Source: Spirochaetia bacterium (GTDB lineage: Bacteria; Spirochaetota; Spirochaetia; CADAEX01). From it: DNA of 64,000 bases. Shown here piece by piece: positions 5,923-26,092 of this stretch (position 1 is its first letter; each line of letters starts with the position of its first letter). The stretch spans positions 3,867,450-3,931,449 of the forward strand of contig OY759746.1 of NCBI GenBank assembly GCA_963662795.1, given 5' to 3'. The notes beneath the pieces were generated by a model that did no database searches, was not told the DNA's origin, and worked only from the letters and a program-made list of their open reading frames with translations. A program made the translations under genes and the position numbers.

Positions 5923-8625
5923 CTATTTTACGCTTAAGTTGAAAACACCGTCCCAGTTTTTGGGAGGCGGAGTCTTCTTGAAATCAACGCATCTTTTAAT
6001 ATAGGTAACCGCCGGCCCGTCATCGGGTGAAATACCTAATACCTTATTGAACAGATCGGCACACCCGTCCCAGTCCTGCCCCTGGAATTTCTCAAGCGCG
6101 CTGTGCGAAAGCTCAATAATTTCAAGTGTCTTATCCGATGCTTCCTTTTTCTCATCAATAAGCTCAAAAAGCTGTACCGGCCTGTTTATGCCCACTACCC
6201 TTACAGGATCAAGCTTCCTGCAGGCAAACCGGTTTTTTGTCTGGCTGATTGTATACTCGCTTGCAAGGATCCAGGTGCCGTACTGTTTGTTTACCCCTTC
6301 AAGGCGGGCGGCAAGGTTTACAGCGTTGCCCATAATTGTATAGTCCATCTTCCGTGCCGTACCCATGTTGCCGACAACCATCTCGCCGGTATTAATCCCT
6401 ATTCTTGTCATCAGGGGGCTCGGCGCAATCTGTTTATCAAGAAACACCTTGTTTATTTCCATCTCCATCTTCTTCATCTTTACTGCCGCCGAGCATGCCT
6501 GCTGCGCGTGGTCCGGAAACTCTACCGGCGCTCCGAAAAAGGAGATAATCGCGTCGCCCTCATATTTATCGATAGTACCCCTGCTGTCGAGTATGATATC
6601 ACTCATGGCAGTGAGATACTCGTTAAGAAGTTTTACAAGGTCTGACGGGTCAAGAGACTCTGAAATTGTGGAAAAGCCCCTTACATCAGTAAAAATCGCA
6701 GTAAGCTCTTTTTTATCTCCCCCGAGTTTAAGTTTTTCAGGATCGTTCATCAGCTGTGAGATTACATCCTGTGAAAGATAATGGCCGAATGCGTTTCTGA
6801 TAAATATTTTTTCCTTTGATGTGGTTATCAGGTTTACCATTGTATAGATAATAAATGTAACAAATACTGATGCTGCAGGTGTAATAACATTTACATACAT
6901 ACCGGTATATCTGAAAACAGCTGCGGCAGATGCAAGTATTAAAGCGATAAAAGAGAGCCCGATAATTATGGAAGTGCCGGCGCTTCTTCTTTTAATAACA
7001 GCAAAAACAAGAAGTGAAAACAGAAATGAGGCAAGTATTGGAATCCAGAAAGGAGCAATTGAAATAAACTGCCTGCTTAATATTGTGTTTGCAACTGAAG
7101 CATGAGTTCCTACATTCATATACTCTTTCTCAAAAGGGTTTACGCCAATATCGGTAGTTGATGTTCCGGTATGCCCGATAATGCAGAAAGACCCTTCGAC
7201 ATTTTCCCTTATAATCCGTCTTGCCTCCGCAAGTTCCGTGGATATTGAAATTGTCTTTGCGAATATATCAGGTACATCCTTTTTAAGCTCTGTATACTCA
7301 TTTTTAACGTCAGCAGGAATTGAATCAGAATTAATTACCGCATCAATATCGTTAAGAATCCTTTTTTCCGCATCCCCTGACAAAAAAGAGGCTGTTTCAA
7401 GAAGGAAATATTCCCTTACCTGCGCATATTCATCGAAATTTGATGTATCGCCTGACTCAACCATCCGGCTGAGAAGATCATCAGCATATTGATAGAGATC
7501 ATAAAGAGGAGTATCGCCGTTATAATATTCAAGATATCCTGCATGTTTCATAAGCTTAAGATTCTCGGCAAGCGACTTATAAAGCCTGTTGTGCATCTCA
7601 AGATACCAGTAAGTCATGTGCCTGAAACTTTTTTCATAGCTTTTTACAGGCCAGTTGATAAGAAGCTGACCGTCAACAAGTGGTATTGAGATATCCTCGG
7701 TTTTACCGTCAGGAAGGACCGCCCCTTTTAACAGAAGACTTCCTTTTCCTGCCTTAATCTCAGGCTTTCCCAGCCAGTCATAAAGCGGCGAAAAAGCAAG
7801 CTGGGGAAAGTACCTGCCCTTATAAACCCTTAACAGGTCTATCCTTCTCCTTACCCCGTCGTTATCGATAAACACATTGGGAAACCCAGCTCCCCTGCCG
7901 TTTTTAAGTACAGGTGCTATCGCGGGACGCAGGTCATCAGCCCGGAAAAAAATATCTCCCCCTGAATCAATTTTTATGGAGGAAATCGGGATATTTTCAG
8001 ATGCCCACTCTTTCAGTTCCGCAGGAACGCTGTCGTCAGTCCCTTTAAACATATTAACAGTAAAAAAAGCCTTGCCGAAATACCTTGCAGCCTTTCCCAG
8101 GTACTCATCATTATCCCGAGCCACACTGCCCATGGTATCGAGCAGATTAAGCTTTATGCTGTTGTTGATCTCCTTAAGCTGGGAAGCAAAATCAGATGCA
8201 TCCCGCACACGCAGCTGCCCTGAGGAAATCGCCCCGAAAAGGTCTGAAATATTGCTGTTAATTGTATCAAACTGCTGGTTTAAGGTATCAGGTATTTTAT
8301 TTTCAAGAAATTCTGCATTAATCCCTCTTGGGCTTTTTTCCGTATATTCAATATCAAATACAGCATATTCAGCCCTGAATTCTTTCAGGAGAAGCAGCCC
8401 GTCCGCCATTATGCTCCTGCTCCAGGGCCACACTCCTACTTTTGAGATAGCAAGATCATCAACGTCAATCAATACAATCTTCTTCTCTTCCGGAACTTCC
8501 GGCTTTATTCTTAAAAAAAGGTCATAAGCCCTGTGTTCATTGTCCTCCATGATCTGGGTAAAACTTAATATGGTAAATACAGCCGCAACAGCAAATGGCA
8601 TAAAATAAAGCAGATTTTTTTTCAT
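5923..8625 (-). CDS. CHASE2-domain class III adenylate cyclase (copy A)
   Basis: CHASE2 motifs WPWSR, FDI, DNDGVRR; 3 TM; FTDVRGFS, IDKYEGDA, DYTIMGNAVNLAARLE; helical C-terminal tail. Start placed at the ATG after a G-rich SD. Confidence 0.92.
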   Translation of the reverse strand: MKKNLLYFMPFAVAAVFTILSFTQIMEDNEHRAYDLFLRIKPEVPEEKKIVLIDVDDLAISKVGVWPWSRSIMADGLLLLKEFRAEYAVFDIEYTEKSPRGINAEFLENKIPDTLNQQFDTINSNISDLFGAISSGQLRVRDASDFASQLKEINNSIKLNLLDTMGSVARDNDEYLGKAARYFGKAFFTVNMFKGTDDSVPAELKEWASENIPISSIKIDSGGDIFFRADDLRPAIAPVLKNGRGAGFPNVFIDNDGVRRRIDLLRVYKGRYFPQLAFSPLYDWLGKPEIKAGKGSLLLKGAVLPDGKTEDISIPLVDGQLLINWPVKSYEKSFRHMTYWYLEMHNRLYKSLAENLKLMKHAGYLEYYNGDTPLYDLYQYADDLLSRMVESGDTSNFDEYAQVREYFLLETASFLSGDAEKRILNDIDAVINSDSIPADVKNEYTELKKDVPDIFAKTISISTELAEARRIIRENVEGSFCIIGHTGTSTTDIGVNPFEKEYMNVGTHASVANTILSRQFISIAPFWIPILASFLFSLLVFAVIKRRSAGTSIIIGLSFIALILASAAAVFRYTGMYVNVITPAASVFVTFIIYTMVNLITTSKEKIFIRNAFGHYLSQDVISQLMNDPEKLKLGGDKKELTAIFTDVRGFSTISESLDPSDLVKLLNEYLTAMSDIILDSRGTIDKYEGDAIISFFGAPVEFPDHAQQACSAAVKMKKMEMEINKVFLDKQIAPSPLMTRIGINTGEMVVGNMGTARKMDYTIMGNAVNLAARLEGVNKQYGTWILASEYTISQTKNRFACRKLDPVRVVGINRPVQLFELIDEKKEASDKTLEIIELSHSALEKFQGQDWDGCADLFNKVLGISPDDGPAVTYIKRCVDFKKTPPPKNWDGVFNLSVK

Positions 8626-8757
8626 GTCCCCTCCCCCGGGATTTTTTATATTATTCAATTTTTAATTTCATTCTACAGTAATTTATATTATAATTGTATA
8701 ATGTAATTATTAGAAATGAAATTACAAAAAGATATTTTAAAAAAACAAAGGAGTTTA

Positions 8758-9207
8758 ATGATGAAAAGAGCATTTTTATCTGCAGCTCTTTTTCTGACCG
8801 CGATGCTCATTTACAGTCAATCCAACGAGGAAATAGACGCATTTATGGCTAAAAAACAGGCGGATGTAGCAACAGCAGCTTACTTCACCCTTTCAGCAGC
8901 CGGAATGCAGAACGCCGCATCCACAGCAGAGGCAGCTCCCGGATACCTTAATGAGAACAAGTGGTTTAAGGAAGAGCTTAAAGGGGATGAGCTGCTTAAA
9001 GCAAGTGACGCATCATACCTTATCATGAAGGCATTCGCGCAGAAAGGCGGCCTTATGTATACAATCGCACCGGGACCGCGCTATGCGCTTAAGGAGATCA
9101 AGTACCTCAAACTCATTGATCAGAAAACAGACCCCGCAAAGATAATGACCGGGGAAGAGTTCATGATACTTCTTTCTGAATTCCTGTCATGGAAGGAGAC
9201 AAACTGA
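8758..9207 (+). CDS. Small secreted protein (SLH-like?), paralog of 23589..24071
   Basis: Signal peptide; GGLMYTIAPGPRYALKE motif shared with the paralog; stop overlaps the next start (TGATG). Confidence 0.7.
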   Translation: MMKRAFLSAALFLTAMLIYSQSNEEIDAFMAKKQADVATAAYFTLSAAGMQNAASTAEAAPGYLNENKWFKEELKGDELLKASDASYLIMKAFAQKGGLMYTIAPGPRYALKEIKYLKLIDQKTDPAKIMTGEEFMILLSEFLSWKETN

Positions 9208-10523
9208 TGAAAAAAGCACTTTTTATTTTACTTGCGGCATTTGCCGCAGTATCGTTAGCATCAGCTGTCGATTTCGGGGGAAACCTTGAAAATTATTCAC
9301 TTATAACCAGCGATGATGATTCACAGAAACAGACAGACAAGGCAGCCCTCTGGTTTGGCGTATCCCCGTCTGAAACAATATATATCAAGGGACAGGGAAG
9401 CGTTGCCTACTCACTCGATGATTACGACTTTCTTGCCGATATTGACTACCTCTATATCACACAGGATTTCCCGGGAGCAATAAATGAGCAATCAGCTTTC
9501 ACCTACAAGGCGGGAAGGTTTTTCCAGTCGGAATTCACAGGTAAAGTATTTGCCCACAGGCTTGACGGGGCTCTTTTTACTCTTGCGCTTCCGATAGCAA
9601 ACTTTTCACTCGGAGCAGGCTATACAGGTCTTTTACTCAAGCCGGTTTCCGGCGTAAACAATACAGCGGCAGATATGGTTGATGATTCTGATGATGATGT
9701 AAAACTTGCACCCAAAAAGATGATAGTAAGACTTGGCGCAAGCTTTATTGATATTATGCCTGCGCAGCAGCTTGATGTTTCGTTTGTAACCCAGTTTGAC
9801 ATGAGAAGCGACGACCTGCTTGAAGACGGCGATGCTGCAACAGAAGACGGCAACGGCGGAAAACTCAACACATACTATATAGGAGCAGGGCTTTCCGGGG
9901 CAATTACAGGTTCATTTATATATGACACATACCTTTATTATCAGCTTGGGAAAACCCTTACCCTGATTGATGACGAATTTACCGATAAACCCATAAGCGC
10001 AATTCTCCTGGGCGGAAGCCTGAGCTACCTTAACAGGGAGTTCTACAGGTCAAAGGTGACCGGGTCTCTGCTTTACGCAAGCGGCGATGACGATAATACC
10101 TCGGTTTATGAAGGCAACACAAAGGGAAGCGGCACACAGTTCATGCCGGTGTCCTCATCTTCAACCGGGCTTATATTCTCCCCAACTCCGTCTAATTTAC
10201 TTAAGGCAGGGCTTGAATACTCAATGAAGCCTTTTGCGGAAAGCAAAAATATGATGAAAAACTTCCAGGCTGCAGTCAGCGCCGGAATTTTCTACAAGGC
10301 ATCTGAAGGAGCTGTTTCGGAGTCCAAGGCTTCGGCAGTCTCTGATGAAAAATACCTTGGAACTGAAGCGCTGCTGACGCTCAACTTCAGGCCGGTATCG
10401 GATTTCGGTCTCACGCTCGCAGGAGGAGCTTTCTTCCCGAACGACAGCAAAGACGGCCCAATGGGTGAGGATTACAGGGATACTGAGGCAGGCGTAATGA
10501 TCAACGTCTCTCTCAGTTTCTAG
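9207..10523 (+). CDS. Outer-membrane beta-barrel protein (copy A)
   Basis: Signal peptide, alternating amphipathic strands, C-terminal beta-signal INVSLSF. Confidence 0.78.
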   Translation: MKKALFILLAAFAAVSLASAVDFGGNLENYSLITSDDDSQKQTDKAALWFGVSPSETIYIKGQGSVAYSLDDYDFLADIDYLYITQDFPGAINEQSAFTYKAGRFFQSEFTGKVFAHRLDGALFTLALPIANFSLGAGYTGLLLKPVSGVNNTAADMVDDSDDDVKLAPKKMIVRLGASFIDIMPAQQLDVSFVTQFDMRSDDLLEDGDAATEDGNGGKLNTYYIGAGLSGAITGSFIYDTYLYYQLGKTLTLIDDEFTDKPISAILLGGSLSYLNREFYRSKVTGSLLYASGDDDNTSVYEGNTKGSGTQFMPVSSSSTGLIFSPTPSNLLKAGLEYSMKPFAESKNMMKNFQAAVSAGIFYKASEGAVSESKASAVSDEKYLGTEALLTLNFRPVSDFGLTLAGGAFFPNDSKDGPMGEDYRDTEAGVMINVSLSF

Positions 10524-10577
10524 CTTTTATACAGATATGATTATGGATGAATTGCATCCAAGTTTTTGGAGGACAAA

Positions 10578-11267
10578 TTGAGATTACATAAAATACACAT
10601 TCCAATGATAATTCTGCTGTTGCTTACATCATCAGCTGTTTTCGCAGCAGATGCAGTAATAAAGAATTTCACAGGAAGGGTTGAGATTCAAAATGCAGGC
10701 TCTTCTGCATGGAGCGCCGTCTCGCAGGGACAGAGCATAAAAACCGGAACACTGATATCAACAGGTTTTAATTCAAACGCAGTACTTGACCTTGGCAGCT
10801 CCGAGATTTTCCTGAAACCGCTTACAAGGGTTTCTGTCGACGATCTTGAGACAAGCGGCAGTACAATCAAGACAGACCTCAACCTGAAGCTCGGCAAAAT
10901 AAGGGCGGATGTAAAAACGACAGAAGGACTCAAGCACAACTTCACCCTGCGCACCCCTGTATCCACTGCCGCTGTACGCGGAACAGTATTTGAAGCCGGA
11001 GTCTCATCCCTTGATGTAATTCAGGGAATGATTGCATATTCAAATAAAATAGGACAGAAACGCAGTGTTGGAGGCGGCTCTTCCTCTTCCATGCCTGGAA
11101 CAGGGTTCAGCTCGCCTGAATCAGCGCTTGAGGCAATAGCCGCAAGTTTCAGCATAGACACAACAACAGCTGTTGAAACCGGTGCCGAAATTATAAGCGA
11201 TTATGTAAAAATCAGGACCACAGGCGAAGGTACAGTTGTCGTTACAGTTATAAGTAAGCCGTATTAA
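10578..11267 (+). CDS. Secreted FecR-domain protein 1
   Basis: TTG start after GGAGG; signal peptide ending VFA; STGFNS, LKLGKI, TPVSTAAVRGTVF. Confidence 0.85.
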   Translation: MRLHKIHIPMIILLLLTSSAVFAADAVIKNFTGRVEIQNAGSSAWSAVSQGQSIKTGTLISTGFNSNAVLDLGSSEIFLKPLTRVSVDDLETSGSTIKTDLNLKLGKIRADVKTTEGLKHNFTLRTPVSTAAVRGTVFEAGVSSLDVIQGMIAYSNKIGQKRSVGGGSSSSMPGTGFSSPESALEAIAASFSIDTTTAVETGAEIISDYVKIRTTGEGTVVVTVISKPY

Positions 11268-11279
11268 AGGAGGTCAGAA

Positions 11280-11747
11280 ATGAAAAAATTATTTTTTTTA
11301 TTTTTACTATTATCAATTTTTTTTATTTCCTGTTATATAACCCCTGAAAGTGATCAGGAAGACAGTGTATTATCTCTGCGGTTACCTGCAGACAGCATTC
11401 CACAAAGAGAGATTGGGGTAGATGAAGCCGGGTTTATGGCAATAATTACAAATGTTAATTTTGAGACTGAAGAGGTAGATGCAAGTTTTTTTAATAATCC
11501 CGAAAATGCATTATATATTGAAGAAGTCACAATCAGTTCTTCATCAGAAGATACCTTCATGGACAATTTACCAATTGAAATCCGTCTTGAAAAGGTTCCA
11601 GAGGGCGATAAAATGTACATCTATCTAATGTATCTTGGGAGTTTAGCATCTGACAATCCTTTTGGATTCTTTTATTCTGAAACCCCATTTTCAATAAAAA
11701 AGGGTGAGATCACTTATATAGAACTAACTGGATATGTTTTATATTAG
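11280..11747 (+). CDS. Lipoprotein (Cys-Tyr type) 1
   Basis: Lipobox FISC; SD AAGGAGG; C-terminal PFSIKKGEITYIEL. Confidence 0.75.
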   Translation: MKKLFFLFLLLSIFFISCYITPESDQEDSVLSLRLPADSIPQREIGVDEAGFMAIITNVNFETEEVDASFFNNPENALYIEEVTISSSSEDTFMDNLPIEIRLEKVPEGDKMYIYLMYLGSLASDNPFGFFYSETPFSIKKGEITYIELTGYVLY

Positions 11748-11774
11748 CTATATTCCGGAAGTATAGTTATCACT

Positions 11775-11804
11775 AAAAAGCCGGCTGTAACACCGGCTTT
11801 TTTT
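11775..11804. terminator. Bidirectional intrinsic terminator
   Basis: AAAAAGCCGG-ctgtaaca-CCGGCTTTTTTT between convergent genes. Confidence 0.85.
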
Positions 11805-11823
11805 ATACACCTGATAACTGTTC

Positions 11824-12252: not shown

Positions 12253-12491
12253 AAAACCAATCTGCAATAACATAATATAAGTGTCAACCTTCCGTGCAAG
12301 AGATATTCATTCAATTTATTTTCAGAAATTCCTTTTATTTTCATTTTTTCTAAATTATAATTAAATCATTGACTAATGTTTGGTTTAATTTATTTATAAG
12401 TGAATAAAACTGTTTTACCTTTTTTTTCAACTTGAACCGGTTTTACCCAAACTATTCTACTTCTGTCATTTTTTTTATTCAGGAGGGATAA

Positions 12492-13190
12492 ATGATTAAA
12501 GTTAAATTTCCCTTTATAGTCCTGCTTCTTTTTTTACTGTCATCAACTGCGGGATTTGCAGCAGATCAGGCAATTCTGAAAACTCTTTCCGGCAAAGTGG
12601 AACTTAACACAGGAGGCACTTCATGGATCCCGGCAAAACAGGGACAGACAATAGCCAAAGGGACAGTTATTTCTACCGGATTCAATTCAAATGCTGTTGT
12701 AGACCTCGGAAGCTCGGAAATTTTTTTAAAACCTCTTACAAGAATAGCGCTCGAAGATCTTTCAACAAGCGGCAATACAATAAAAACAAACCTTAACCTG
12801 AGGCTCGGCAGAATTGACGCAGATGTTAAAACAACTGAAGGGCTTAAGCATAACTTCACTCTGAGAACACCTGTCTCGACTGCCGCGGTCCGGGGAACCA
12901 GATTCACAGCAGGGGTTGCAATGCTTGAAGTAAAAACCGGCAGGATTTCCTATTCAAATAAAATAGGACAGAAGAGAAGTGTTTCAGGCGGATCATCCTC
13001 TTCTGTTTCAGGCGGCGGCTATACAGCACCTGAGTCAGCGGCTGAAGCAGTTGTCCAGACATTCAGCACTTTAACAACAACAGTTACAGAAACCGGCACA
13101 AGCATTATTGTAAGACCGCCTCCGGCCCTTCCCACAACAGGTACAGTAACAGTCACATGGGATCTGGATGAATCCGGTCTCCCGATGTGA
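12492..13190 (+). CDS. Secreted FecR-domain protein 2
   Basis: Signal peptide; core very similar to 10578..11267 (LKHNFTLRTPVSTAAVRGT). Confidence 0.85.
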   Translation: MIKVKFPFIVLLLFLLSSTAGFAADQAILKTLSGKVELNTGGTSWIPAKQGQTIAKGTVISTGFNSNAVVDLGSSEIFLKPLTRIALEDLSTSGNTIKTNLNLRLGRIDADVKTTEGLKHNFTLRTPVSTAAVRGTRFTAGVAMLEVKTGRISYSNKIGQKRSVSGGSSSSVSGGGYTAPESAAEAVVQTFSTLTTTVTETGTSIIVRPPPALPTTGTVTVTWDLDESGLPM

Positions 13191-13209
13191 AGAAGATAAG
13201 GAGTAATTT

Positions 13210-14076
13210 ATGAAAATAAATATATTTTTATTTATTTTACTAATATTTATTATTTTAATATCCTGTTACCAGCAGCCTGAATCAGCAGATTCAGGATCAG
13301 TATCTATCAGACTTCAGTCAGATATAATGAGGGATGCTCCTGCTGGTTATGACGGGGAACTGGTACTTGCAGTTTTCAAGGCTGGAGATCTTGATTCTTT
13401 GATAGGTTATTCAGGAGGCAGTATAGCTTCAACAGAAATTTCTTACCTCGGTGATTTCCCGACTCCGTTGCTGGCAAACAATTCAGTACCTTTTACCGGT
13501 AGATCAGGAGTAATCTCATTACTGAATGTACCTTCTGACAGATCTCTTTCGCTTCTTGTCGAACATTATGGCGGATTATACGGAGTAGAGGGAACATATT
13601 ATCATTCATATTCCGGAGTATCTGATACATTTGAAGTTAAGGGGGGCGGAACCGCTGAAGTAGCAATTACTCTTACCCCAACAACATATGCTGCCGGGAT
13701 GAGTGTAAATAAATATACTTCCTATACTGCTTCTCATTTCAGATTATATGATCCTACACATCTGAGTACAATTTTACATTTCAACGGTAATGAAATTGAA
13801 TTAATAGATCCCAGTTTTTATGAAACATTTAATATGGAGGATAGGTACGGAACAACAGGAACTGTATCTGGAAATAATGCTATTGTCACATTTGATGTTG
13901 CGGATGCTATTCTTCCAGGAAGAAAGACACGTGTACTTGTCAGTGAAAATCAAACCATCTCTCAAAATAATTTCATAGGAATATCTAATGAATTTGAACT
14001 GAGACCTGGATTATCAGATTATGTAACTGTAACATATTATCAGTACACTTCAAGCAGTTCCTGGAACTACAGCTAA
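13210..14076 (+). CDS. Lipoprotein (Cys-Tyr type) 2, probably two beta-sandwich domains
   Basis: Lipobox LISC; two terminal motifs SDTFEVKGGGTAEVAITL and SNEFELRPGLSDYVTVTY. Confidence 0.75.
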   Translation: MKINIFLFILLIFIILISCYQQPESADSGSVSIRLQSDIMRDAPAGYDGELVLAVFKAGDLDSLIGYSGGSIASTEISYLGDFPTPLLANNSVPFTGRSGVISLLNVPSDRSLSLLVEHYGGLYGVEGTYYHSYSGVSDTFEVKGGGTAEVAITLTPTTYAAGMSVNKYTSYTASHFRLYDPTHLSTILHFNGNEIELIDPSFYETFNMEDRYGTTGTVSGNNAIVTFDVADAILPGRKTRVLVSENQTISQNNFIGISNEFELRPGLSDYVTVTYYQYTSSSSWNYS

Positions 14077-14087
14077 AGCTGACTCAA

Positions 14088-15875
14088 GTGATTAAAGAAA
14101 AATATATCCCGGGTCCTGCAGCATTTTTCGCTGTAGATCCCGGGAATTTTATTGTTTATAATTTTTTAACAAAAAAAATATCTAAAATAACTAAAACCAA
14201 GGCTTACAAATATTCACAATTATCAGGTATTAAAACCATTGATCAGCACAAAAAAAATCAGGTTAATCAATCTGAATCCATTTCAACAATCAATGATTAT
14301 GATTATTTATTTTCAACTTTTATTAAAAATAAACTTCTCTGTCCTCTGTCTTTTTTTAAAGATTCTAATAAGAATTTAGATACTAATTATACAATAACAT
14401 TTATTACATCAAACAGACCGGAATTACTTACAAATGCGTTAAATAGTCTTGCAGAAAAAATATATATCAATCATAAAGATCTGCCTATCATGGTATTTGA
14501 TGACTCATCTGAACCAGAAATAACGGAAATAAACAAAAGTTTAAGTAATGAGATTAAAAATAAATTCGGAATAAAAACATTCTACTTTGGGATAAAGGAA
14601 AAACTACAATTTATTGATTTACTTAACTCAAAAACAGAAGGGAAAATAATCAATAAAGATATATTAAAATTTGCAATTCTGGGGTTTCAGCAGAATTCAC
14701 CCCTTAAAGGGCCGGGTGGAAACAGAAATACAGCTCTCTTAAAACTTGCCGGAAAAAAAGTAATCAGTTTTGATGATGATATACAATATCGTTTTGTCAC
14801 TCACCCTGAAATTAATCATGATATGGAAATAGCATATTTGAAAGATCCGGAAGGTGATCTGTTTTTAAATATATTCAGGGCAGGTGATAAAATTATTAAT
14901 TCTGAAATTGATCCCATTGGTTATATTAAAGAAATTCTGGGAAAAAGCATTAAAACACTCATAAAAAAAACAGAAATAAATAACGGGACTTTATTTACAG
15001 ATAATTTCAGACCAGAGCCTGTTTTTTCACTTGCAAACCAAGAAAGCTCAATAAAAGCTGCAATCTTTGGTATATATGGGGGAAGATGGTACAGCAGCCC
15101 TTTTGGAATCTATTTCAAAAACAATCCTGATAAAATAGTTTTCAAAAAAAAATCTGAATATACCAGCATAAAGGAAAAACCTGTATCTTTAATGCTTCCA
15201 CATCGCCTCACGTTGAGCAGAGCACCATTCTTTGTTGCAACAGCCATGGGAATGGATGCAGGGAATATCCTCCCGCCATTCCCGCCATATGGGAGAAATC
15301 AGGATGGAATTTGGGCAGCTGTAATGCTTGCATTAAACCAAAATGCATTTATATCACATATCCCTATTGCAATCTATCACGAGATGAGCAATAAAAATAT
15401 TTTTACAAATGATGACTATAAAGATGCTTCAGTAGGTTTCGGCATTATTACCGTGTTATTGATAGAACACTGCAGGAAAAAACTTATATCATTATACAGT
15501 AAAGCAACTTATGAAACACTGGGAAATCAGCTTTTCAATATATCTCAGATAACAGATAAACATTTTATTTCATTATGTCACGAGCTCTGGCTTGATTATA
15601 CAGGAAATACAATATGCAACATTGAAAAGAAACTTACTGATAATAAAAGAAAACCAAAACACTGGGCTGAAGATATGGATAAATTTATCGATTTGCTGGA
15701 AAAACAATCATTAGACCCTGGAAACGCACTTCCGAGAGAACTAAGAGACAATTACCCAATAGAGAAGACAATAAGGATATACAAATTATTTTTTAAAGAT
15801 TATGGAAATCTCTTAAAAAGCTGGCCCATTATATGGGAAGAAGCTTTTAATTTGAATATTGAAAAGGAAAACTGA
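14088..15875 (+). CDS. Hypothetical GT-A (GT2-like) glycosyltransferase with RRE/PqqD-like N-terminus, paralog 1
   Basis: FITSNRPELL, VFDDS, GGNRN, SFDDD, GRNQD; AT-rich. Confidence 0.6.
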   Translation: MIKEKYIPGPAAFFAVDPGNFIVYNFLTKKISKITKTKAYKYSQLSGIKTIDQHKKNQVNQSESISTINDYDYLFSTFIKNKLLCPLSFFKDSNKNLDTNYTITFITSNRPELLTNALNSLAEKIYINHKDLPIMVFDDSSEPEITEINKSLSNEIKNKFGIKTFYFGIKEKLQFIDLLNSKTEGKIINKDILKFAILGFQQNSPLKGPGGNRNTALLKLAGKKVISFDDDIQYRFVTHPEINHDMEIAYLKDPEGDLFLNIFRAGDKIINSEIDPIGYIKEILGKSIKTLIKKTEINNGTLFTDNFRPEPVFSLANQESSIKAAIFGIYGGRWYSSPFGIYFKNNPDKIVFKKKSEYTSIKEKPVSLMLPHRLTLSRAPFFVATAMGMDAGNILPPFPPYGRNQDGIWAAVMLALNQNAFISHIPIAIYHEMSNKNIFTNDDYKDASVGFGIITVLLIEHCRKKLISLYSKATYETLGNQLFNISQITDKHFISLCHELWLDYTGNTICNIEKKLTDNKRKPKHWAEDMDKFIDLLEKQSLDPGNALPRELRDNYPIEKTIRIYKLFFKDYGNLLKSWPIIWEEAFNLNIEKEN

Positions 15876-15877
15876 AT

Positions 15878-17686
15878 TTGACTGATAAATATTATCCTGC
15901 TTTTCTTGAATTTAAAAAAGCAGGTGAAAACAAATATTTCGTTTTAAACAGAAATGATCAAACAACACATATCATTAGTAGTTTTGAAGGAGAACTTTTG
16001 AGGAGTCTTTCAGGTTGTAAAACATGGGAAGAACATCTGGAGAATATCAGGGAAACTGATAAATATGGAATAGCAGATGCTGTTTTACTAAAAAGCTTCA
16101 ACAATTGGATTGATAGAGGATTTCTCCGAAATGAAATACTTATTTCAAACCCAGGAATAAACAAATATTCAGACAATGAGAAGCAGCAAATTATTTCTGG
16201 ATGCATAACCTGTAATCGCCCTGACATGCTGGACAGATGGCTGAAATCGAGGGTAAGAACACCAGATTATAAAGAGAAAAAAACCCAAATTCTGATATGC
16301 GATGATACTATAAATTCCAAAATATCTGAAAGAAATAAAAATATTATAAACAATCATAAAAAAGATTATGCCGGAAAAATTGCATACGTTGATAACAGAA
16401 AAAAGAAAATACTATCAGAATTGATAACACAATCAATATCTCATGATTTGCCAGAAGGCCTTGTTGATTTTGGTTTGTCTTTAGATGAAAATTTACATGT
16501 CAAAAACACAAGAGGCGGAAATAGAAATACAATGACACTTGCATCTGCCGGATTCACTCTGTATTCAAGTGATGATGATATTGAATACAGTTTTTTCTCA
16601 CGTCAAAACCAGCAATCAGATGAATATCATTTTGTTGATAATTTCAATTCGCCAACAACTTTTTATCCAGATATGAACTCCCTGAATTCAGGTATTACCT
16701 CTTTAGAGAAAATCAATCTATTAAAATGTTTTGAATCATTTATAGATTCAGATATATCATCTCTTTTTAAAAACAATGCTTCTGTTTTTCTTGATAATAT
16801 AACAGCAGAATCTGCCATGTTTGCTGAACAAAATATACTCCAGATCAGGGCAATTGGTGCAGGTTATTGCGGCGGCAGATGGTATCAGAATCCATTTATA
16901 CCGCTGTTCCAGCAGGATAGAGAGAGAGAACTTTTTTTTTACGACTATGAAAATTATAAATTTATCAGGAATAATGGATTGAATATAAAATCAGCAGACA
17001 ACTATACCCTTCACAACGACAATTTTCTAATGGGTGGGACCTTTTGTATAAATAATAAGAATATCATTTCACCGTGCCTTCCCAGAGGAAGAAGGGATGA
17101 TACGAACTTTGCAATTATCCTTAACAAGTGCCTTGAGCCTGGACTTACACTTCATCTCCCTTTTGCTTTGTATCACAATCCTGATGAAAAACCTCCGTTT
17201 TCAAAGAAGAATTTTATGGATGTATCTCTGGAAACAGGAATATACTCTAATCTACTTCTTGAAAAACTTACTTCATCGTTTCTAAATCCGGGGAGAAAAG
17301 AACGCTTACAAGAACTTGGCTTTCGTTTTCAGGAATTCGGGAAGCTTAAAACACCTGATTTTGAAGAGCAGCTTAAACTCATGCAGCTGGGATTTTTAAC
17401 AAAGATAATGAATCACATAAGTTATCTTCTTGATCTTTATGAAAGAGAGCCCATCTGGTGGGCGGAGGATATGGAAAAATATTACGAGCTGCTTAAAAAG
17501 GAAGCATTGTCATCTGAGAGTGTAGTGCCGAGTGAACTTCGCAGTTCAGGCACAAAAGAGGAAAGCCTTGCAGCTTTTCAGAATTACATTTTCAAATGCG
17601 GTGAGATGCTGCAATGGTGGCCGGAAATATGGGAAGCTGCCAGAGTGATAAACCAGGAAGGAAGAGGTCCAATAGATATTGATTAA
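15878..17686 (+). CDS. Hypothetical GT-A (GT2-like) glycosyltransferase with RRE/PqqD-like N-terminus, paralog 2
   Basis: ITCNRPDML, ICDDT, GGNRN, SSDDD, GRRDD; WAEDM and WPxIWE shared with paralog 1. Confidence 0.6.
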   Translation: MTDKYYPAFLEFKKAGENKYFVLNRNDQTTHIISSFEGELLRSLSGCKTWEEHLENIRETDKYGIADAVLLKSFNNWIDRGFLRNEILISNPGINKYSDNEKQQIISGCITCNRPDMLDRWLKSRVRTPDYKEKKTQILICDDTINSKISERNKNIINNHKKDYAGKIAYVDNRKKKILSELITQSISHDLPEGLVDFGLSLDENLHVKNTRGGNRNTMTLASAGFTLYSSDDDIEYSFFSRQNQQSDEYHFVDNFNSPTTFYPDMNSLNSGITSLEKINLLKCFESFIDSDISSLFKNNASVFLDNITAESAMFAEQNILQIRAIGAGYCGGRWYQNPFIPLFQQDRERELFFYDYENYKFIRNNGLNIKSADNYTLHNDNFLMGGTFCINNKNIISPCLPRGRRDDTNFAIILNKCLEPGLTLHLPFALYHNPDEKPPFSKKNFMDVSLETGIYSNLLLEKLTSSFLNPGRKERLQELGFRFQEFGKLKTPDFEEQLKLMQLGFLTKIMNHISYLLDLYEREPIWWAEDMEKYYELLKKEALSSESVVPSELRSSGTKEESLAAFQNYIFKCGEMLQWWPEIWEAARVINQEGRGPIDID

Positions 17687-17740
17687 GTGTTCCCGGTGAT
17701 TTTTTAAAAAACCCCCGGCAGAAAAATAAGGAAAATAAAA

Positions 17741-18718
17741 TTGAAAAAAATACTTGTTACAGGCGGCGGCGGTTTTATCGGCTCGCACCTGTGTGAAAAA
17801 CTTTTAAATGACGGTAATTCTGTTATCTGCCTTGATAATTTTTACACCGGCAGCAGATATAATGTTGAGCACTTAACCGGTAATAAATATTTTAAACTCC
17901 TGATTCATGATGTAACTGTTCCGGTCAATATTGAAACAGATCAGATATATAATCTTGCATGCCCGGCAAGTCCTGTTCATTATCAGTCCGATCCGGTACA
18001 GACAATAAAAACGTCTGTTCAGGGCGCAATTAATATGCTTGAACTCGCTAAAATAACCGGAGCGCGAATTCTTCAGGCTTCAACATCAGAGGTTTACGGA
18101 GATCCGGAAGTTCATCCCCAGAAAGAAGATTACTGGGGCAGGGTCAATCCTATTGGTATCAGAAGCTGCTATGACGGAGGGAAAAGGTGCGCGGAAACCC
18201 TTTTTTTCGATTATCACCGCCAGTACGGCGTTCAAATAAAAATTGCAAGAATTTTCAATACCTATGGACCAGGTATGCAGTCGAATGATGGAAGAGTTGT
18301 AAGCAATTTTATTGTACAGGCACTAAAAAATGAAAATCTTACGATTTTTGGTACAGGGAAACAGACCAGAAGTTTCTGTTATGTTGATGATATCGTAGAT
18401 GGTTTGGTTAAGCTAATGAACAGCCGGGATAATTTTACAGGCCCTGTCAATATCGGCAATCCTGATGAAATTTCAATACTTGAACTGGCTGAAAAAGTAA
18501 TCTCGCTGACCGGTTCCTATAGCAGCCTTGTTTACAACCCTCTGCCGGCCGATGATCCTCAGAGAAGGAAACCGATAATTGACCTTGCTGTGAATGAGCT
18601 GGGATGGCAGCCTGAAACAAAAATGCAGGAAGGGTTAAAGAAAACGATTGAATATTTTAACGGCGTCCTTTCCCGGAAAAATCAGGCTGGGCCGGTTCAA
18701 TTCAAACCGGCCCATTAA
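17741..18718 (+). CDS. UDP-glucuronate decarboxylase (UDP-xylose synthase), SDR family
   Basis: [47 protein letters not shown]. Confidence 0.92.
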
Positions 18719-18734
18719 TATTCTATTTAAGGAT

Positions 18735-21467
18735 TTACTTAACTCCCAGGTTGAATACTCCGTCCCAGTTGGCTGCCGGCGGGGTTTTCCTGTATTTCTG
18801 ACACCTGTCCATAAATGTTGAGGCCGGCCCGTCTTCCGGCAGGAGTTTTAATATCTCGCTGAAAAGTTTTTCCGCCTTCTCCCATTCTTTTTCCTCAAAA
18901 GCATCAAGCGCGCCGTGAAACAGTTCAACACCTTCAACAGTTTTACGGTCTGCGGCCGACTTTTCCTCCAGTATTTCATAAAGCCTTACCGGAGTATTTA
19001 TTCCGACAACCCTTACCCTGTCGAGCTTTCTGAATAGAAAAGCATCCCCTGCCTGGTCTGCTGTTGATTCGCTTGTAAGCAGCCATGTTCCGTACTGCTT
19101 GTTGACTCCTTCAAGCCGGGCCGCGAGGTTTACAGCGTTTCCCATTATTGTATAGTCCATCTTCCTGGGAGTTCCCATGTTGCCGACAACCATCTCGCCT
19201 GTATTGACTCCTACCCTGGTAAGAAGAGGTGAAGGAGTAAGAGAATCACGCATGAATCTTTCATTAAGTTCCTTTTCCTCCCTCTTCATTCTTATCGCGG
19301 ACATACATGCCTTGTATGCGTGGTCTTCAAGATCAATCGGGGCACCGAAGAAGGAGATAATCGCGTCCCCTTCATATTTATCAATTGTCCCCTTGTATTC
19401 AAGGATAATGTCGCTCATCGCGGAAAGATAATAGTTAAGAAGCTTTACAAGGTCCTGCGGATCAAGGTTTTCAGATATTGTCGAGAACCCCTTAACATCG
19501 GTAAATACAGCTGTAAGGTTTTTCTTTTCCCCTCCGAGGTTCAGCCTGTCCGGGTTAAGGATAAGCTGGCTGATAACGTCAGCCGACAGGTATCTTGAAA
19601 AGGCGTTTCGCAAGAAACTTTTCTCGCTTTCGCTCTTTATGAATTTCATTATTGAAAGCGCAAGAAATGTAAAAAAGATTACAAGGACAGGAGTCAGAAT
19701 CGGAAGATATATTTTAAGAAAAATAAAGATTCCTGCTCCCGCGAGTATTACAATAAAAAGGAAAATCAAACCAATAAATACAACCTTTTTAGGGTCTGTT
19801 TTTCTGGTTGTGAATGTTACAAGAAAAGCAAATATTGAAGCTATAATTCCGGAAATTGAAACAGGCAGCTCTGTAATAAAATCACCGGAAAGGATTGTGT
19901 TTGCGACTGCCGCGTGTGTGCCGACATTCATGTAGTTTTTTTCAAACGGGTTTACGCCGATATCTGTTGTTGATATACCAGTATAGCCCATAATCGCAAA
20001 TGAACCGGCAAGTTCTTTTTCAAGTATTCCCCTTATTTCCATAAGCTTTCTGTAATCACCGTCTACAGCGTCGAATACAGTTTCCACTTCACTGCGGATT
20101 GCAAGATATTCATCCTTTTTCGAGATATCAAAATCAGGATGGGCAATAATTTCATCTATACGGCCGATAATCGCTTTTTCGGCGTTCCCGTCAAGCAGCT
20201 CTCCCAATCCCTCAAAAAACATTTTCCTCACACTGCGGTATTCTTCCATCTCTTCCGGGGCCCTTAACTCTTCCAGTATATCGTCCCTGATGCCGTCGCT
20301 GTACCTGTAAAGATCAAGCAGCGGGGTATCGCCTCCGTAAAATGATAAATATCCAGCCTTATCCATTATTTCAAGGTTCATCATGATGTTATCCAGAAGC
20401 TTGTCATGAACTACAAGGTTGTTGAAGGAAAGCTGTCTGAAGCTGTCAGCGAAAAGTTTTTTCGGCCAGTGGATGAGCATTTTGCCCTCTTCCGTAAGAG
20501 GGATTGTGATATCACGTAAAGAACCGTCAGGATATTTCGCTCCTTTTAAAGTAACGCGGCTGCCTGTTACAGATATATCCGGATTCCCAAGGTAATCAAA
20601 AAGAGGGGCAGCTACAAGCTGGGGATAGAGTTTGCCTTCGTATTCTTTAAAGACATCAATCCGCCGCCTTACGCCGTCATCATCAACGACAACGTTGGGG
20701 AACCCAGCCCCCTTCCCTTTTGAAATGATGGGAAGAATTGCGGGCTGAAGAGATTTTGCCTTTTCAAAAATTTTATTTTTTTCAGGATCAAAGCCTGATA
20801 CTTTAACAGGTATGTTTGATTTAACATAATCGGTAAGATCTTCCCTGACATTGATGAGCTGAATATCATCAGGGAGCATATTGACCGTAAAGAAAGCCGT
20901 ATCAAAAAGTCTTGCAGTTTTTCCAAGATAGATATCATTATCCCTGGCAATATGCTGTACTGCATCCAGCAGCTGTTCTTTCAGGGAATCTGTAAGTCCC
21001 GCAAGGTCGTTGACATAGTCTTCGGCATCCCTCACATGAATTGATCCGTTTGCAATTGCGGTAAAAAGGCCGGTGATATTGTCCTTAAGCCCTGCGAACT
21101 GGCTGCTGAACAGATCAGGGATAATTTCCTCAAGGTAGCGGGAATCTATCCCCTGGGGGCTTCTGTCCACATACTCAATATCAAAAACAACATAGGCAGT
21201 TTCAAACTCCTTCATCAGTATAAGACCGTCAGCGACAATGTCGCGGCTCCACGGCCAGACTCCTACCTGGGCTATGGCAAGATCATCTATGTTAAGCAAG
21301 AGTATTTCCTGTCTTTCTTCAATTGTTGGTTTTATATTAAGCAGCACATCATAAATCCTTTTTTCCGCTACCCTGTATACAGGCAGTAGGAGCAGAAGCG
21401 CGAAAAAACCGGAGACGACTGCCGGAATTATAAAGAGTTTCCATTTATCCAGGATTATTTTTTTCAT
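18735..21467 (-). CDS. CHASE2-domain class III adenylate cyclase (copy B)
   Basis: Full-length paralog of 5923..8625 with the same catalytic motifs. Confidence 0.92.
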   Translation of the reverse strand: MKKIILDKWKLFIIPAVVSGFFALLLLLPVYRVAEKRIYDVLLNIKPTIEERQEILLLNIDDLAIAQVGVWPWSRDIVADGLILMKEFETAYVVFDIEYVDRSPQGIDSRYLEEIIPDLFSSQFAGLKDNITGLFTAIANGSIHVRDAEDYVNDLAGLTDSLKEQLLDAVQHIARDNDIYLGKTARLFDTAFFTVNMLPDDIQLINVREDLTDYVKSNIPVKVSGFDPEKNKIFEKAKSLQPAILPIISKGKGAGFPNVVVDDDGVRRRIDVFKEYEGKLYPQLVAAPLFDYLGNPDISVTGSRVTLKGAKYPDGSLRDITIPLTEEGKMLIHWPKKLFADSFRQLSFNNLVVHDKLLDNIMMNLEIMDKAGYLSFYGGDTPLLDLYRYSDGIRDDILEELRAPEEMEEYRSVRKMFFEGLGELLDGNAEKAIIGRIDEIIAHPDFDISKKDEYLAIRSEVETVFDAVDGDYRKLMEIRGILEKELAGSFAIMGYTGISTTDIGVNPFEKNYMNVGTHAAVANTILSGDFITELPVSISGIIASIFAFLVTFTTRKTDPKKVVFIGLIFLFIVILAGAGIFIFLKIYLPILTPVLVIFFTFLALSIMKFIKSESEKSFLRNAFSRYLSADVISQLILNPDRLNLGGEKKNLTAVFTDVKGFSTISENLDPQDLVKLLNYYLSAMSDIILEYKGTIDKYEGDAIISFFGAPIDLEDHAYKACMSAIRMKREEKELNERFMRDSLTPSPLLTRVGVNTGEMVVGNMGTPRKMDYTIMGNAVNLAARLEGVNKQYGTWLLTSESTADQAGDAFLFRKLDRVRVVGINTPVRLYEILEEKSAADRKTVEGVELFHGALDAFEEKEWEKAEKLFSEILKLLPEDGPASTFMDRCQKYRKTPPAANWDGVFNLGVK

Positions 21468-23454: not shown

Positions 23455-23588
23455 TCAGTATGTTCATGATAAACAGCATTTTTTTCACTCTTTTCTGGTT
23501 TTTACTGGAAAAGCATTTTATAATTATAGGAAGCATTATTGCGTTTAAATACGGAATTGATAGAGATTTTAACTTAGGAGGTAGTTTA

Positions 23589-24071
23589 ATGCCTTTTTTT
23601 ACTGGCAAAAGGATTCTGAGAGCAGCTTTAATTGCAGTTATCTTCTGCTGTGCTGTGTTCACGGTTTCCGCGGATTTTAATACGATACTTGATTCTATCC
23701 TTACAGAGGATAAGATATCCTTCGGCAGCGCGTCATATATTCTTCTGACAGGTTCAGGAGCACTGAGTGAAGACGCAACCATCGAAGAGGCGGCCGCTAA
23801 AATGGCTGAAATGATTCCGCAGGCAGACGCATCGGCGGATAAACCTGTAACTATGGGTGAATTTTCCTATATGGCTATGAAAACATACGGGATAAGCGGA
23901 GGAATAATGTACCGCTTTTTTCCAGGCCCACGCTACGCAATCCGCGAACTGAGATACAAAAAAATAGTACAGGGAAACGCATACAGCGGTATGAACCTTT
24001 CATCTGAAAGGGCCTTGAGGATTATGGGCAGGGTACTTGACAGGGAGGAGTCGAAAAATGCGGAAAAATAG
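23589..24071 (+). CDS. Small secreted protein (SLH-like?), paralog of 8758..9207
   Basis: SD AGGAGG; signal peptide; GGIMYRFFPGPRYAIRE. Confidence 0.7.
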   Translation: MPFFTGKRILRAALIAVIFCCAVFTVSADFNTILDSILTEDKISFGSASYILLTGSGALSEDATIEEAAAKMAEMIPQADASADKPVTMGEFSYMAMKTYGISGGIMYRFFPGPRYAIRELRYKKIVQGNAYSGMNLSSERALRIMGRVLDREESKNAEK

Positions 24072-25356
24072 AATTATTTTTACAACAGTAATAGTGATGA
24101 TGCTTCTCGCTCCGTCATGTATCTTTGCGATTAGTATGGAAGCAGGCGGCACTTTTTATAACAGCACGGGTTTTGTCTCAGACGGTATTGAAGATACAGA
24201 CCTTGAGCAGCTTAATACACTTACCTTGCGTTTTGATGCGTACACGGAATCGGAAACAGGGGCCAACGGCACATTCACAGCTCAGGGAAGGTATGAATAT
24301 ACTGATGAAAGATCATTCCTCCTTGACGCCGAAATATTACGTCTTAAAGGGGCATTCCCCGGCGCAATGGGAGAAACATCAATAATTGAGGCATCTGCCG
24401 GAAGATTTTTCTTCAGCGACCCGGCAGGGATGATACTCACCCATACCGCAGACGGAGCTTCCTTTGAGCTGATGTATCCGAAGGTAAGGCTTATGGCAGC
24501 AGGAGGATATACCGGATTGATTATCAATCCTTCGAGCGATATAAGGATGACCCGTATAGACTTAAGCGAAACAGATCTTGAAATGGAAGATAATTTTTAC
24601 GGGCCGAAAAGAGCTTTCGGCCAGTTCGGCTTAACATTTCCTGAACTCTGGTGGCTCAACTCCCTATCTCTTTTTACCCTTGCACAGTTTGACCTGCGGG
24701 ATGAGGATGAAGGAACTGTTATGAATACACAGTACCTTGGAGTACAGACTGAAAGAAGCTACGGCAGGAACCTTTATCAGGACCTTTTTTTAATCCTTCA
24801 GGCCGGACAGCTGAAAACACCTGACCTCGAAGACAGGGTCGGCTACGGACTGCTTTTAGGGCTCCGCCTCAGATACCTTAAAGAGAATTTTTTCGGTTCA
24901 AGGTTTGAATTCAGGGCCCTTGGTGCCCCTCCCGATATTTCTACAGACGATCTTTCAGACAAGATTCCATTCGGAGTTCTCGGATTTGTCCCCATGAATC
25001 AGCCTGATCTCGGGGAAGCGGTTTCACCGTCACTTTCAGGTCTCGGGCTTTTTGACCTCAATTATTCCTTCAGGCCGTTTTACAACAGCAAATCAGAAAC
25101 TGCGGCAGGAATTCAGCCTGGTTTAGGGGCAAAAGGATATTTTAGGACATACTCGGTTAAAGTTGACTGGATAGACACAGATCCTGATTCAGACTCTCTT
25201 TATCTCGGCACTGAAATTAATGCCTCGCTGGTCTGGAGAATTTTTTCCGATCTCGGAATTGACATAAATGGCGCTTATTTTATTCCTTCAAGCACAATCT
25301 CTGAAGACATGGATACAATATGGGCGCTCAATTTTAATTTATCTGTAAGTTTTTAG
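24058..25356 (+). CDS. Outer-membrane beta-barrel protein (copy B)
   Basis: Signal peptide; AGRFF, H..DGA, GYTGL, YLGTE, SDxG shared with copy A; ends FNLSVSF. Confidence 0.78.
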   Translation: MRKNRIIFTTVIVMMLLAPSCIFAISMEAGGTFYNSTGFVSDGIEDTDLEQLNTLTLRFDAYTESETGANGTFTAQGRYEYTDERSFLLDAEILRLKGAFPGAMGETSIIEASAGRFFFSDPAGMILTHTADGASFELMYPKVRLMAAGGYTGLIINPSSDIRMTRIDLSETDLEMEDNFYGPKRAFGQFGLTFPELWWLNSLSLFTLAQFDLRDEDEGTVMNTQYLGVQTERSYGRNLYQDLFLILQAGQLKTPDLEDRVGYGLLLGLRLRYLKENFFGSRFEFRALGAPPDISTDDLSDKIPFGVLGFVPMNQPDLGEAVSPSLSGLGLFDLNYSFRPFYNSKSETAAGIQPGLGAKGYFRTYSVKVDWIDTDPDSDSLYLGTEINASLVWRIFSDLGIDINGAYFIPSSTISEDMDTIWALNFNLSVSF

Positions 25357-25373
25357 TTTAGGAGGTATCAGGT

Positions 25374-26075: not shown

Positions 26076-26092
26076 TAGGCAGGGAGGTTTAT

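Follow-up and report, generated by a model that had tools for sequence, protein, structure and literature searches.

A tandem pair of RRE-like proteins with GT75-like cores as candidate guided glycosyltransferases in the FecR/CHASE2 modules of a spirochete

Introduction

The recognition elements (RREs) of pathways for peptides that are made by the ribosome and modified after translation (RiPPs) are the handle through which RiPP enzymes find their peptides. In the maturases TigE, TbtB, MccB, MibB/NisB and LynD/TruD, and in the discrete proteins TbiB1, PbtF and PqqD, the element is a domain of about 90 amino acids (aa) built of strands followed by three helices. A similar N-terminal domain is predicted to stand before the catalytic domain of two proteins, named here A and B, which are encoded in tandem within a 64,000-nucleotide (nt) stretch, hereafter called the window, of the genome of a Spirochaetia bacterium (GenBank assembly GCA_963662795.1, contig OY759746.1; this genome is G000 in our set). 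None of the listed maturases has a catalytic partner resembling glycosyltransferase (GT) family GT75, unlike A and B, and the neighbours of A and B in the window are exported proteins, with no precursor peptide among them; the likeness to the RiPP systems also shows in those members of the A/B family that lie beside lantibiotic-like precursors and maturases. RREs fused to glycosyltransferases (PF00535), which were previously not known to contain RREs, were retrieved by a 2025 genome-mining survey in mSystems (PMC12710340). Some members of the A/B family share a weak PF00535 match with these fusions; the survey's passage on them, a single sentence, gives no function, GT75 link or FecR/CHASE2 context.

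The catalytic cores of A and B come closest to GT75 enzymes, namely rice UAM2 (PDB 8CID) and MtdL (7XPU), with which they share a GT-A core, an extra core and a C-terminal helix domain. UAM2 is a non-catalytic member of plant hetero-complexes. Identity to the GT75 enzymes is 10% in the structural alignment, and A and B have about 170 more core residues, besides the N-terminal RRE-like domain that GT75 enzymes lack. The contexts of the A/B family indicate peptide or carrier acceptors rather than GT75-type mutase work. Another GT-A enzyme, the glycocin S/O-glycosyltransferase SunS (7MSP/7MSN), glycosylates a ribosomal peptide; it has a helical peptide-binding part and is not known to carry an RRE, and it differs from A and B in length and motifs, with a far weaker structural match than GT75.

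FecR-domain proteins beside CHASE2 sensors have been described in the Burkholderia BiofilmReg operon (PMC5192318), and CHASE2 cyclases and the FecR-domain protein SMc02177 in S. meliloti (PMC5498481). The window shares with these modules an exported FecR-domain protein beside a CHASE2 sensor, here with cyclase output, whereas the passages on the modules in the two reports describe no A/B-type enzyme. We consider that there is roughly an even chance that A and B are guided glycosyltransferases which would act on a polypeptide before its export, most likely on the lipoprotein encoded directly upstream.

Results

Proteins A and B

Protein A (positions 14088..15875 of the window, + strand, 595 aa, GTG start) is followed after 2 bp by protein B (15878..17686, + strand, 602 aa, TTG start) and begins 11 bp after the end (14076) of the gene for lipoprotein 2. 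A preliminary description of this DNA, made from the sequence, had presented A and B as two paralogs of about 600 aa that carry GT-A motifs and lack signal peptides, and all of these points were borne out. From end to end, A and B can be aligned over 606 columns at 24% identity (E 6e-50). Signal peptides and membrane segments are absent from both, the maximal Kyte-Doolittle mean over 19 residues being 1.35 for A and 1.08 for B; for the products of the flanking FecR and lipoprotein genes the same maximum lies at 2.1-2.7.

The motifs read TSNRP, FDDSS, GGNRN, DDD and GRNQD in A and TCNRP, CDDT, GGNRN, DDD and GRRDD in B, and these columns are the best conserved ones in an alignment of 113 family members. 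Residue numbers follow B unless marked as A. N217, D234 and G332 are invariant (113 of 113 members), the DDD motif is present in 112-113, and at least 90% of the members keep T111, R114, D142, D232, D233, G329, R405, D408, P428, H433 and W581. The family-invariant residues are retained in A (R110, D138, N214, D229-231, R403, D406 and H431 in A numbering), and B likewise retains all of them.

Among 61 related genomes, nine contained a match to A, including five of the 19 in the family to which the window's genome belongs (G000 not counted). The order A then B was invariable in eight pairs from six genomes: one pair each in G000, G011, G015 and G007, the last two cut by contig ends, and two pairs each in G005 and G008. 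Both pairs of G008 (contig 36, locus L015, 7585-16391) are decayed in a complementary manner: in one pair A is whole while B is broken into two pieces, and in the other A carries several stops while B is whole, as would be expected if one A and one B were both needed. Errors of the draft assembly could account for the split B but not for the many stops in A. In a FastTree phylogeny, the A-type and B-type proteins formed sister clades with local support of 99-100, and each clade held members from G005, G008 and G011, so the duplication is old. This tree (86 rows) contains many rows of odd composition; seven rows that are only non-ribosomal peptide synthetases (NRPSs), brought in by single-linkage clustering, form a clade of their own that is to be ignored, and the rows marked as fused for loci L053, L063 and L081 may be merely over-extended open reading frames (ORFs). 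We read A and B as old, non-redundant paralogs, which would work either as a hetero-oligomer or in two successive steps.

The N-terminal domain

The AlphaFold2 model of B, built on a 113-row alignment, reached a predicted local distance difference test (pLDDT) score of 95 and a predicted template modelling (pTM) score of 0.94. It divides the protein into an RRE-like domain (residues 1-90; 15878-16147), a short linker, an alpha/beta GT-A/GT75-like core (105 to about 440, delimited as 105-442; 16190-17203) and a helical tail (443-593; 17204-17656). By alignment with B, the corresponding parts of A lie on the + strand at about 14088-14357, 14385-15407 and 15408-15860. Both the whole-B model and a separate model of residues 1-98 (42 aligned N-termini, pLDDT 88.5) place strands at about 4-34 and helices at 35-80.

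The top structural match of the N-terminal model was TigE (Z 10.3, 86 residues aligned, chain 3-91), followed by TbtB (9.1), MccB (8.7), MibB (8.7) and TbiB1 with leader peptide (8.0), then by ThcOx (7.3), the PbtF RRE (7.2), McbB (7.0) and lasso B1 (6.9), and lower down by MadB, NisB, CteB, PqqD (5.8) and LynD (5.7). In several of these chains the aligned region is presumably the RRE itself, in part according to the entry titles. DNA-binding winged helices ranked below the RREs. In Foldseek, the ten top rows for the N-terminus of B were all TbiB1, LynD, TruD, ThcOx or TigE, with TM scores of 0.53-0.66 and E values of only 0.016-0.11. The domain is conserved across the family, with one His present in 95 of the 113 members. 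The whole-family profile run against PDB sequences gave best E values of 0.43 and 0.91, the latter for the N-terminus of 5WGG; designed armadillo repeats, which headed the search with the N-terminal profile, were judged spurious because one helix was matched four times. As sequence models give no support, the domain is called RRE-like by fold only, and by the predicted structure its assignment as RRE-type in B is well supported.

The catalytic core

By sequence, the only Pfam family found in A was GT2 (PF00535), restricted to residues 106-163 of A, where it covers no more than positions 5-56 of the 168 in the profile and scores 25.3 bits (cut-off 23.3). B matched no Pfam or NCBIfam family, and nothing useful was found for A in NCBIfam. 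When the whole B model was compared with 48,161 PDB representatives, rice UAM2 came out on top (Z 21.8, root mean square deviation 3.8, 316 of 344 residues, model residues 99-595), with MtdL next (Z 20.1, 315 of 371 residues); generic GT-A enzymes reached Z 15.1 and lower, and SunS 11.3. Altogether 130 representatives matched at Z of at least 8, nearly all of those listed being GT-A enzymes. Foldseek likewise placed MtdL, GlfT2 and UAM2 on top (E about 1e-5) and listed LynD and McbB too. It is therefore well supported, on the level of predicted fold, that the core is GT-A, as proposed in the preliminary description, with GT75 (UAM/MtdL) rather than plain GT2 as its nearest fold, which changes that proposal.

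According to the structural account of MtdL (PMC9937993), the GT-A domain of the enzyme is joined by a core of a novel type and by a helix domain at the C-terminus; its DXD motif (D109-111) and H287 hold Mn2+, R257 and D260 lie at the sugar, and R159 is the likely nucleophile. In the 113-member alignment, the conserved DDD is followed by R-x-x-D and, 28 residues beyond, by His. In a comparison by sequence, D232-234, R405-x-x-D408 and H433 match D109-111, R257/D260 and H287 of MtdL in order and with similar spacing.

The wider family and its contexts

A word-indexed search with A retrieved only 12 proteins, whereas a full HMMER scan with B yielded 2,013 cluster representatives at E ≤ 1e-3 and 1,123 at E ≤ 1e-10. 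When a typical member served as query, 120 relatives were listed, and every name given by the sources was "hypothetical protein". In the protein atlas, the clusters were unnamed, with weak leads to DUF6271 (score 0.84) and to an RGP/STELLO cluster (0.83). Genomic loci were collected with a 21-row family alignment in one genome per species, a scan in which A alone had no match; the 79 loci obtained (named by L-numbers) come from Acidobacteriota, Chloroflexota, Verrucomicrobiota, Spirochaetota, Myxococcota and others.

In two Ktedonobacter loci, L022 (412-3008) and L024 (120-4112), three and five tandem precursor-like ORFs lie beside the family member. Their likely true N-termini end in ...LSEAELEQITGTGG, and they match the mersacidin/lichenicidin lantibiotic model with 33.3 bits (cut-off 23.5), with a C39-peptidase ABC exporter adjoining. 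Their leader appears to be of the lantibiotic type ending in GG and is followed by a Gly-, Asn-, Arg- and Cys-rich core of some 100 aa, and another Gly-rich ORF with a GG leader occurs nearby in L024 (13309-13644). PapB-like radical-SAM/SPASM maturases adjoin family members in L088, L090 and L094, and MvdD-like ATP-grasp maturases in L056, L059 and L063. The family domain also occurs in fusions. It follows NRPS C-A-T domains in P0123, a PP-binding domain in P0081, P0099 and P0156 (here with the RRE-like part) and FkbH with an acyl carrier protein (ACP), with or without a thioesterase, in all four proteins tested (L039 5733-9812, L083 5871-9536, L019 4704-9827 and P0099). The N-terminal 620 aa of the L039 fusion, considered as a family member, proved unrelated to the family and correspond to FkbH. 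The FkbH-ACP fusions hint that the family domain acts there on a carrier-bound unit of glyceryl type. The lantibiotic-like, maturase and carrier-fusion contexts are those that a tailoring enzyme directed at peptides or carriers should have. The peptide direction proposed in the preliminary description is supported, in the form of a peptide- or carrier-directed family, by the contexts in other phyla.

A different setting was found in Chthoniobacterales, where, with one representative scanned per cluster, the family gene adjoins a FecR protein in seven loci, a BBP2_2 porin-like protein in nine and a CHASE2 cyclase in eight. BBP2_2 is the Pfam model for a putative beta-barrel porin and matched at the C-terminus of the neighbour protein. 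The FecR/CHASE2 linkage recurs in three clades of the family and in two phyla. A GT4 gene recurs in just three of the 79 loci.

The upstream lipoprotein

The spirochete lineage keeps lipoprotein, A and B as a fixed block within its FecR/CHASE2-cyclase modules. A homolog of lipoprotein 2 (13210..14076, + strand, 288 aa; lipobox LISC followed by Tyr), the candidate substrate or partner of A and B, stands directly before A in all six pairs whose upstream DNA was read, including two from G005 and one each from G008, G011 and G015. A FecR gene lies upstream of that lipoprotein in five of the six, the exception being G011. A protein with the DUF6675 domain is encoded just upstream of the FecR/lipoprotein-A-B block in L013 (6471-7217; G005) and in L016 (14860-15648; G011) and is not found in the window.

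In two loci of more distant Spirochaetota, L060 and L068, the gene before the single homolog encodes an unrelated lipoprotein, which has a beta-propeller repeat and is about 400 aa long. In G055 (L017, 7561-10146), where the family member stands alone, a collagen-like lipoprotein with about 20 Gly-X-Y repeats is encoded 24 nt upstream of it; a collagen-like surface protein might be a further target there. The occurrence of three unrelated lipoprotein families before the same enzyme in Spirochaetota is our main reason for favouring the lipoprotein as substrate or partner. The preliminary description had suggested as target the Ser/Gly/Thr-rich linkers of FecR, the lipoprotein or a precursor encoded elsewhere. 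Since the lipoprotein is kept before A and B in all six of these pairs and FecR is missing in G011, the former is the better candidate, and the upstream lipoprotein, not the FecR linker, is most likely the local partner of A and B.

Two lesser observations fit this choice, the base composition and the residue after the lipobox Cys. The GC content at third codon positions is 0.235-0.29 in lipoproteins 1 and 2, A and B (11280-17686; 0.235 in lipoprotein 2) compared with 0.36-0.44 in FecR2, the UDP-xylose synthase (UXS) and the cyclases, and overall GC is 0.31-0.37 in lipoproteins 1 and 2, A and B compared with 0.42-0.45 in FecR1/2, UXS and the cyclases. This AT-richness suggests a history shared by the lipoproteins, A and B apart from their neighbours. 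In a heuristic scan of the whole genome, Tyr followed the lipobox Cys in only three of 113 lipoprotein-like N-termini, namely those of lipoproteins 1, 2 and 3, all of which are encoded behind FecR genes. A prediction of the complex of A with lipoprotein 2, both supplied as alignments, scored 0.00, which is no verdict and counts neither way.

The sugar supply

The gene behind B (17741..18718, + strand, 325 aa) encodes a UXS (UDP-glucuronate decarboxylase), as the preliminary description had stated. Its product aligns with human UXS1 over residues 2-312 (E 1e-118), including the NAD-binding and catalytic motifs (GGxGFx..., CYDxGKR), and with ArnA and UDP-apiose/xylose synthase only at 1e-21 to 1e-24; no NCBIfam model was matched at its cut-off. 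UXS is a single-copy gene in G000, which has one Ugd-like gene far off at genome position 1479889. A surface-polysaccharide cluster that bears UXS in G005 also exists in G000 (1.455-1.486 Mb) but without UXS there.

UXS adjoins B only in G000 and G008, the copy in the latter being the second UXS of that genome. These two copies are the most divergent, with 65-71% identity compared with 80-89% among four of the five others (69-72% for the G004 copy). They group in the UXS tree with an SH-aLRT support of only 65, and one or two recruitments are both compatible with the tree. In BLAST searches of the window genes against ORFs of the related loci, UXS matched the G008 locus only and none of the 79 loci of other phyla.

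Discussion

In the mechanism that we propose, the RRE-type domain would dock a recognition segment of a polypeptide, while the GT-A core would bind a metal and a nucleoside diphosphate (NDP) sugar and transfer the sugar onto the docked polypeptide. In other phyla, the partner would be the precursor of a RiPP or an intermediate tethered to a carrier. In the spirochete lineage, the A/B pair would have been taken into the FecR/CHASE2-cyclase modules, seen as envelope sensors, where it would most likely glycosylate the lipoprotein encoded upstream while this is still cytoplasmic, before export; its paralogs lipoproteins 1 and 3, or FecR, might be additional targets. In G000, UXS, encoded in the same apparent operon, may supply UDP-xylose. 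A more far-reaching version, which we hold to be rather doubtful, is that RiPP leader-recognition machinery was repurposed for the glycosylation of signalling proteins: the RRE-guided, GT75-like pair would read the N-terminal Cys-Tyr region of pre-export lipoproteins (or FecR), attach a pentose within the cytoplasm and so adjust what the CHASE2-cyclase envelope sensor perceives, and the whole family would represent a class of glycosyltransferases new to science, guided by leader or carrier, derived from the GT75 fold and serving RiPP, NRPS and FkbH-ACP pathways.

Several observations weigh against guided transfer to a polypeptide. On the side of the enzymes, A and B differ from the family majority at the semi-conserved positions H285, D333, R367 and R439. 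The N-terminus that the preliminary description had called PqqD-like held up as an RRE-type fold in two structure searches but not in Pfam, whose PqqD model matched none of eight N-terminal segments at E ≤ 10, with only scattered chance rows. No counterpart of MtdL R159 could be assigned among the conserved Arg residues (R114 and R405 in at least 90% of members, R216 in 99 of 113). Pfam RGP (PF03214) matched neither A nor B at E ≤ 0.1 and, at E ≤ 1e-5, had no match in 401 genomes of the phylum, among them G000, with a control match in Haloferax; as this model is blind to A and B, the GT75 likeness is one of fold and not family membership by sequence. Moreover, the MtdL report (PMC9937993), in its account of the family, credits GT75 enzymes with mutase reactions and self-glycosylation, not with transfer to other acceptors.

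On the side of the substrate, a short precursor is absent from the window, no C39 peptidase was found in G000, and exported proteins are unusual candidate substrates for an RRE. Modules 1 and 3 of the window have lipoproteins but no A/B-type gene. The Cys-Tyr N-terminus of lipoproteins 1-3, seen in the translations, may be a recognition feature or reflect only shared ancestry. The xylose proposed in the preliminary description is weakly supported by the position of the single UXS copy behind B and disfavoured by the distribution of UXS: UXS was found at E ≤ 1e-60 in just five of the nine genomes with the family and in five genomes without it, G011 (97% complete) has A and B but no UXS at this threshold, and the orthologs of G004, G005, G010 and G008 (contig 28) lie amid Ugd, Wzx-like, GT1, GT2 and glycerophosphotransferase genes. 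We put xylose as the sugar in G000 at about one in three.

The nearness of the core to GT75 makes mutase or self-glycosylating activity a real rival. In that case, A and B would be metal-dependent NDP-sugar pyranose-furanose mutases or RGP-like self-glycosylating proteins that turn what UXS makes, or some related sugar nucleotide, into an unusual donor for another transferase, and the N-terminal domain would serve assembly or regulation only. UAM2 and MtdL are indeed the top matches over almost the whole chain, the DDD, R-x-x-D and His pattern resembles the metal/sugar site of MtdL, a UDP-pentose synthase gene lies next door and the protein atlas gave its lead to the RGP/STELLO cluster. We nevertheless judge this improbable, as A and B are invisible to Pfam RGP, none of the conserved Arg residues could be matched to the GT75 nucleophile, a soluble mutase has no need of a family-wide RRE fold, RiPP-precursor neighbours or carrier fusions, and neither a second transferase nor a 4-epimerase is encoded in the operon. 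It is unlikely, though less strikingly so, that the substrate is encoded outside the operon, as a peptide precursor elsewhere or a small or carrier-tethered molecule, and that the linkage to the lipoprotein and FecR is co-regulation only. The fusions to FkbH-ACP and NRPS modules, the varied contexts across the 79 loci and the lack of a precursor in the window fit such a substrate; the conserved order lipoprotein-A-B with gaps in the window of around 11 bp, the three unrelated lipoprotein families before homologs in Spirochaetota, the lack of a C39 peptidase in G000 and of any carrier-protein gene among the called ORFs of the window do not.

Very unlikely, in our view, is that A and B are ordinary UDP-xylose-using glycosyltransferases of a surface polysaccharide or glycolipid, with the RRE-like fold as a generic winged-helix add-on. 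The weak GT2 match in A and the polysaccharide clusters that surround the UXS orthologs of the four relatives favour this explanation. Against it stand the cytoplasmic-type sequences of A and B, which have no membrane segment, the lack of a UXS match in the BLAST of the 79 loci of other phyla, the rarity of GT4 genes in these loci and an N-terminal domain whose best matches are specifically RREs and not DNA-binding winged helices. Furthermore, ORF calling and Pfam showed in the A/B operon no flippase, polymerase, initiating transferase or further glycosyltransferase, so a plain exopolysaccharide (EPS) cluster was rejected as the identity of the locus. Among the findings that would speak against peptide-directed glycosylation, the preliminary description had named an occurrence of homologs in ordinary lipopolysaccharide (LPS) or EPS clusters together with no detected protein modification; the A/B locus is not an LPS/EPS cluster.

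Guided glycosylation of a polypeptide, if it holds, would make A and B RRE-guided tailoring enzymes whose fold partner and signalling context we did not find described: the literature searched (full text) contained no description of this family, of a GT75-like RRE enzyme or of its FecR/CHASE2 link. With no characterised example of a GT75-like partner for an RRE found there, A and B would stand for an enzyme type without a studied example, within a large unannotated family (2,013 cluster representatives), for which every source name given was "hypothetical protein". As members occur with precursors made by ribosomes, with carriers of NRPSs and with FkbH-ACP, a single assay could give access to many pathways, and transfer of sugar to a polypeptide by A/B-type proteins would give the GT75 fold a true acceptor-transferase activity. 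The repeated linkage of the family to FecR/CHASE2 modules in two phyla offers a concrete way into what the sensors of these modules need to work.

Other features of the window

The apparent operon begins with the gene of FecR2 (12492..13190, + strand), an exported protein that has a FecR domain, a hydrophobic N-terminus and a Ser/Gly/Thr-rich C-terminal tail; it matches Pfam FecR above the cut-off (E 1.2e-7) and is 66% identical to FecR1. ORF calling gave intergenic gaps of 19, 11, 2 and 54 bp from FecR2 to UXS, and a consensus scan listed no terminator-like sites on the + strand between 12492 and 18688. A terminator-like hairpin (18688..18714, both strands; 10-12 pairs, 7 G-C) was listed by the same scan between UXS and the convergent gene for CHASE2-adenylate/guanylate cyclase 2 (18735..21467, - strand; Pfam CHASE2 4.4e-23, Guanylate_cyc 1.3e-18) and closes the FecR2-to-UXS unit against this gene. 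The operon leaves no space for a short precursor gene, in agreement with the preliminary description, which had noted no such ORF nearby; the sole larger gap, 12273-12492, holds unconvincing ORFs of at most 31 aa. The NHLP leader model had no match in G000, but its control matched nowhere too, which makes the result uninformative. A defence system was also considered as the identity of the locus and rejected. PADLOC matched neither A and B nor the lipoproteins and FecR2, and gave only generic PycC matches for the cyclase.

The window contains three modules, namely 1, 3 and the partial one with A, B and UXS, and they are flanked by CHASE2 cyclases. FecR1 and FecR2 score above the Pfam cut-off and two proteins combine CHASE2 with Guanylate_cyc, a like set being present in relatives. 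Module 1 (5923..11747) comprises CHASE2 cyclase 1 (5923-8658, - strand), a 163-aa exported protein, a 444-aa protein, FecR1 and lipoprotein 1, and its gene order recurs in G015 and in the Spirochaetota loci L060, L061 and L068. The 444-aa protein, which has a hydrophobic N-terminus and no family match, is possibly an outer-membrane barrel. Module 3 (23460..26806, + strand), described from translations only, comprises a 203-aa protein, a 439-aa protein, FecR3 (25374-26075) and lipoprotein 3 (26093-26806). A gene for a GNAT acetyltransferase (11824-12273, - strand) lies between module 1 and the FecR2 operon, and between CHASE2 cyclase 2 and module 3 there is a 320-aa ORF (21667-22629) whose translation, by eye, resembles an IS30-type transposase.

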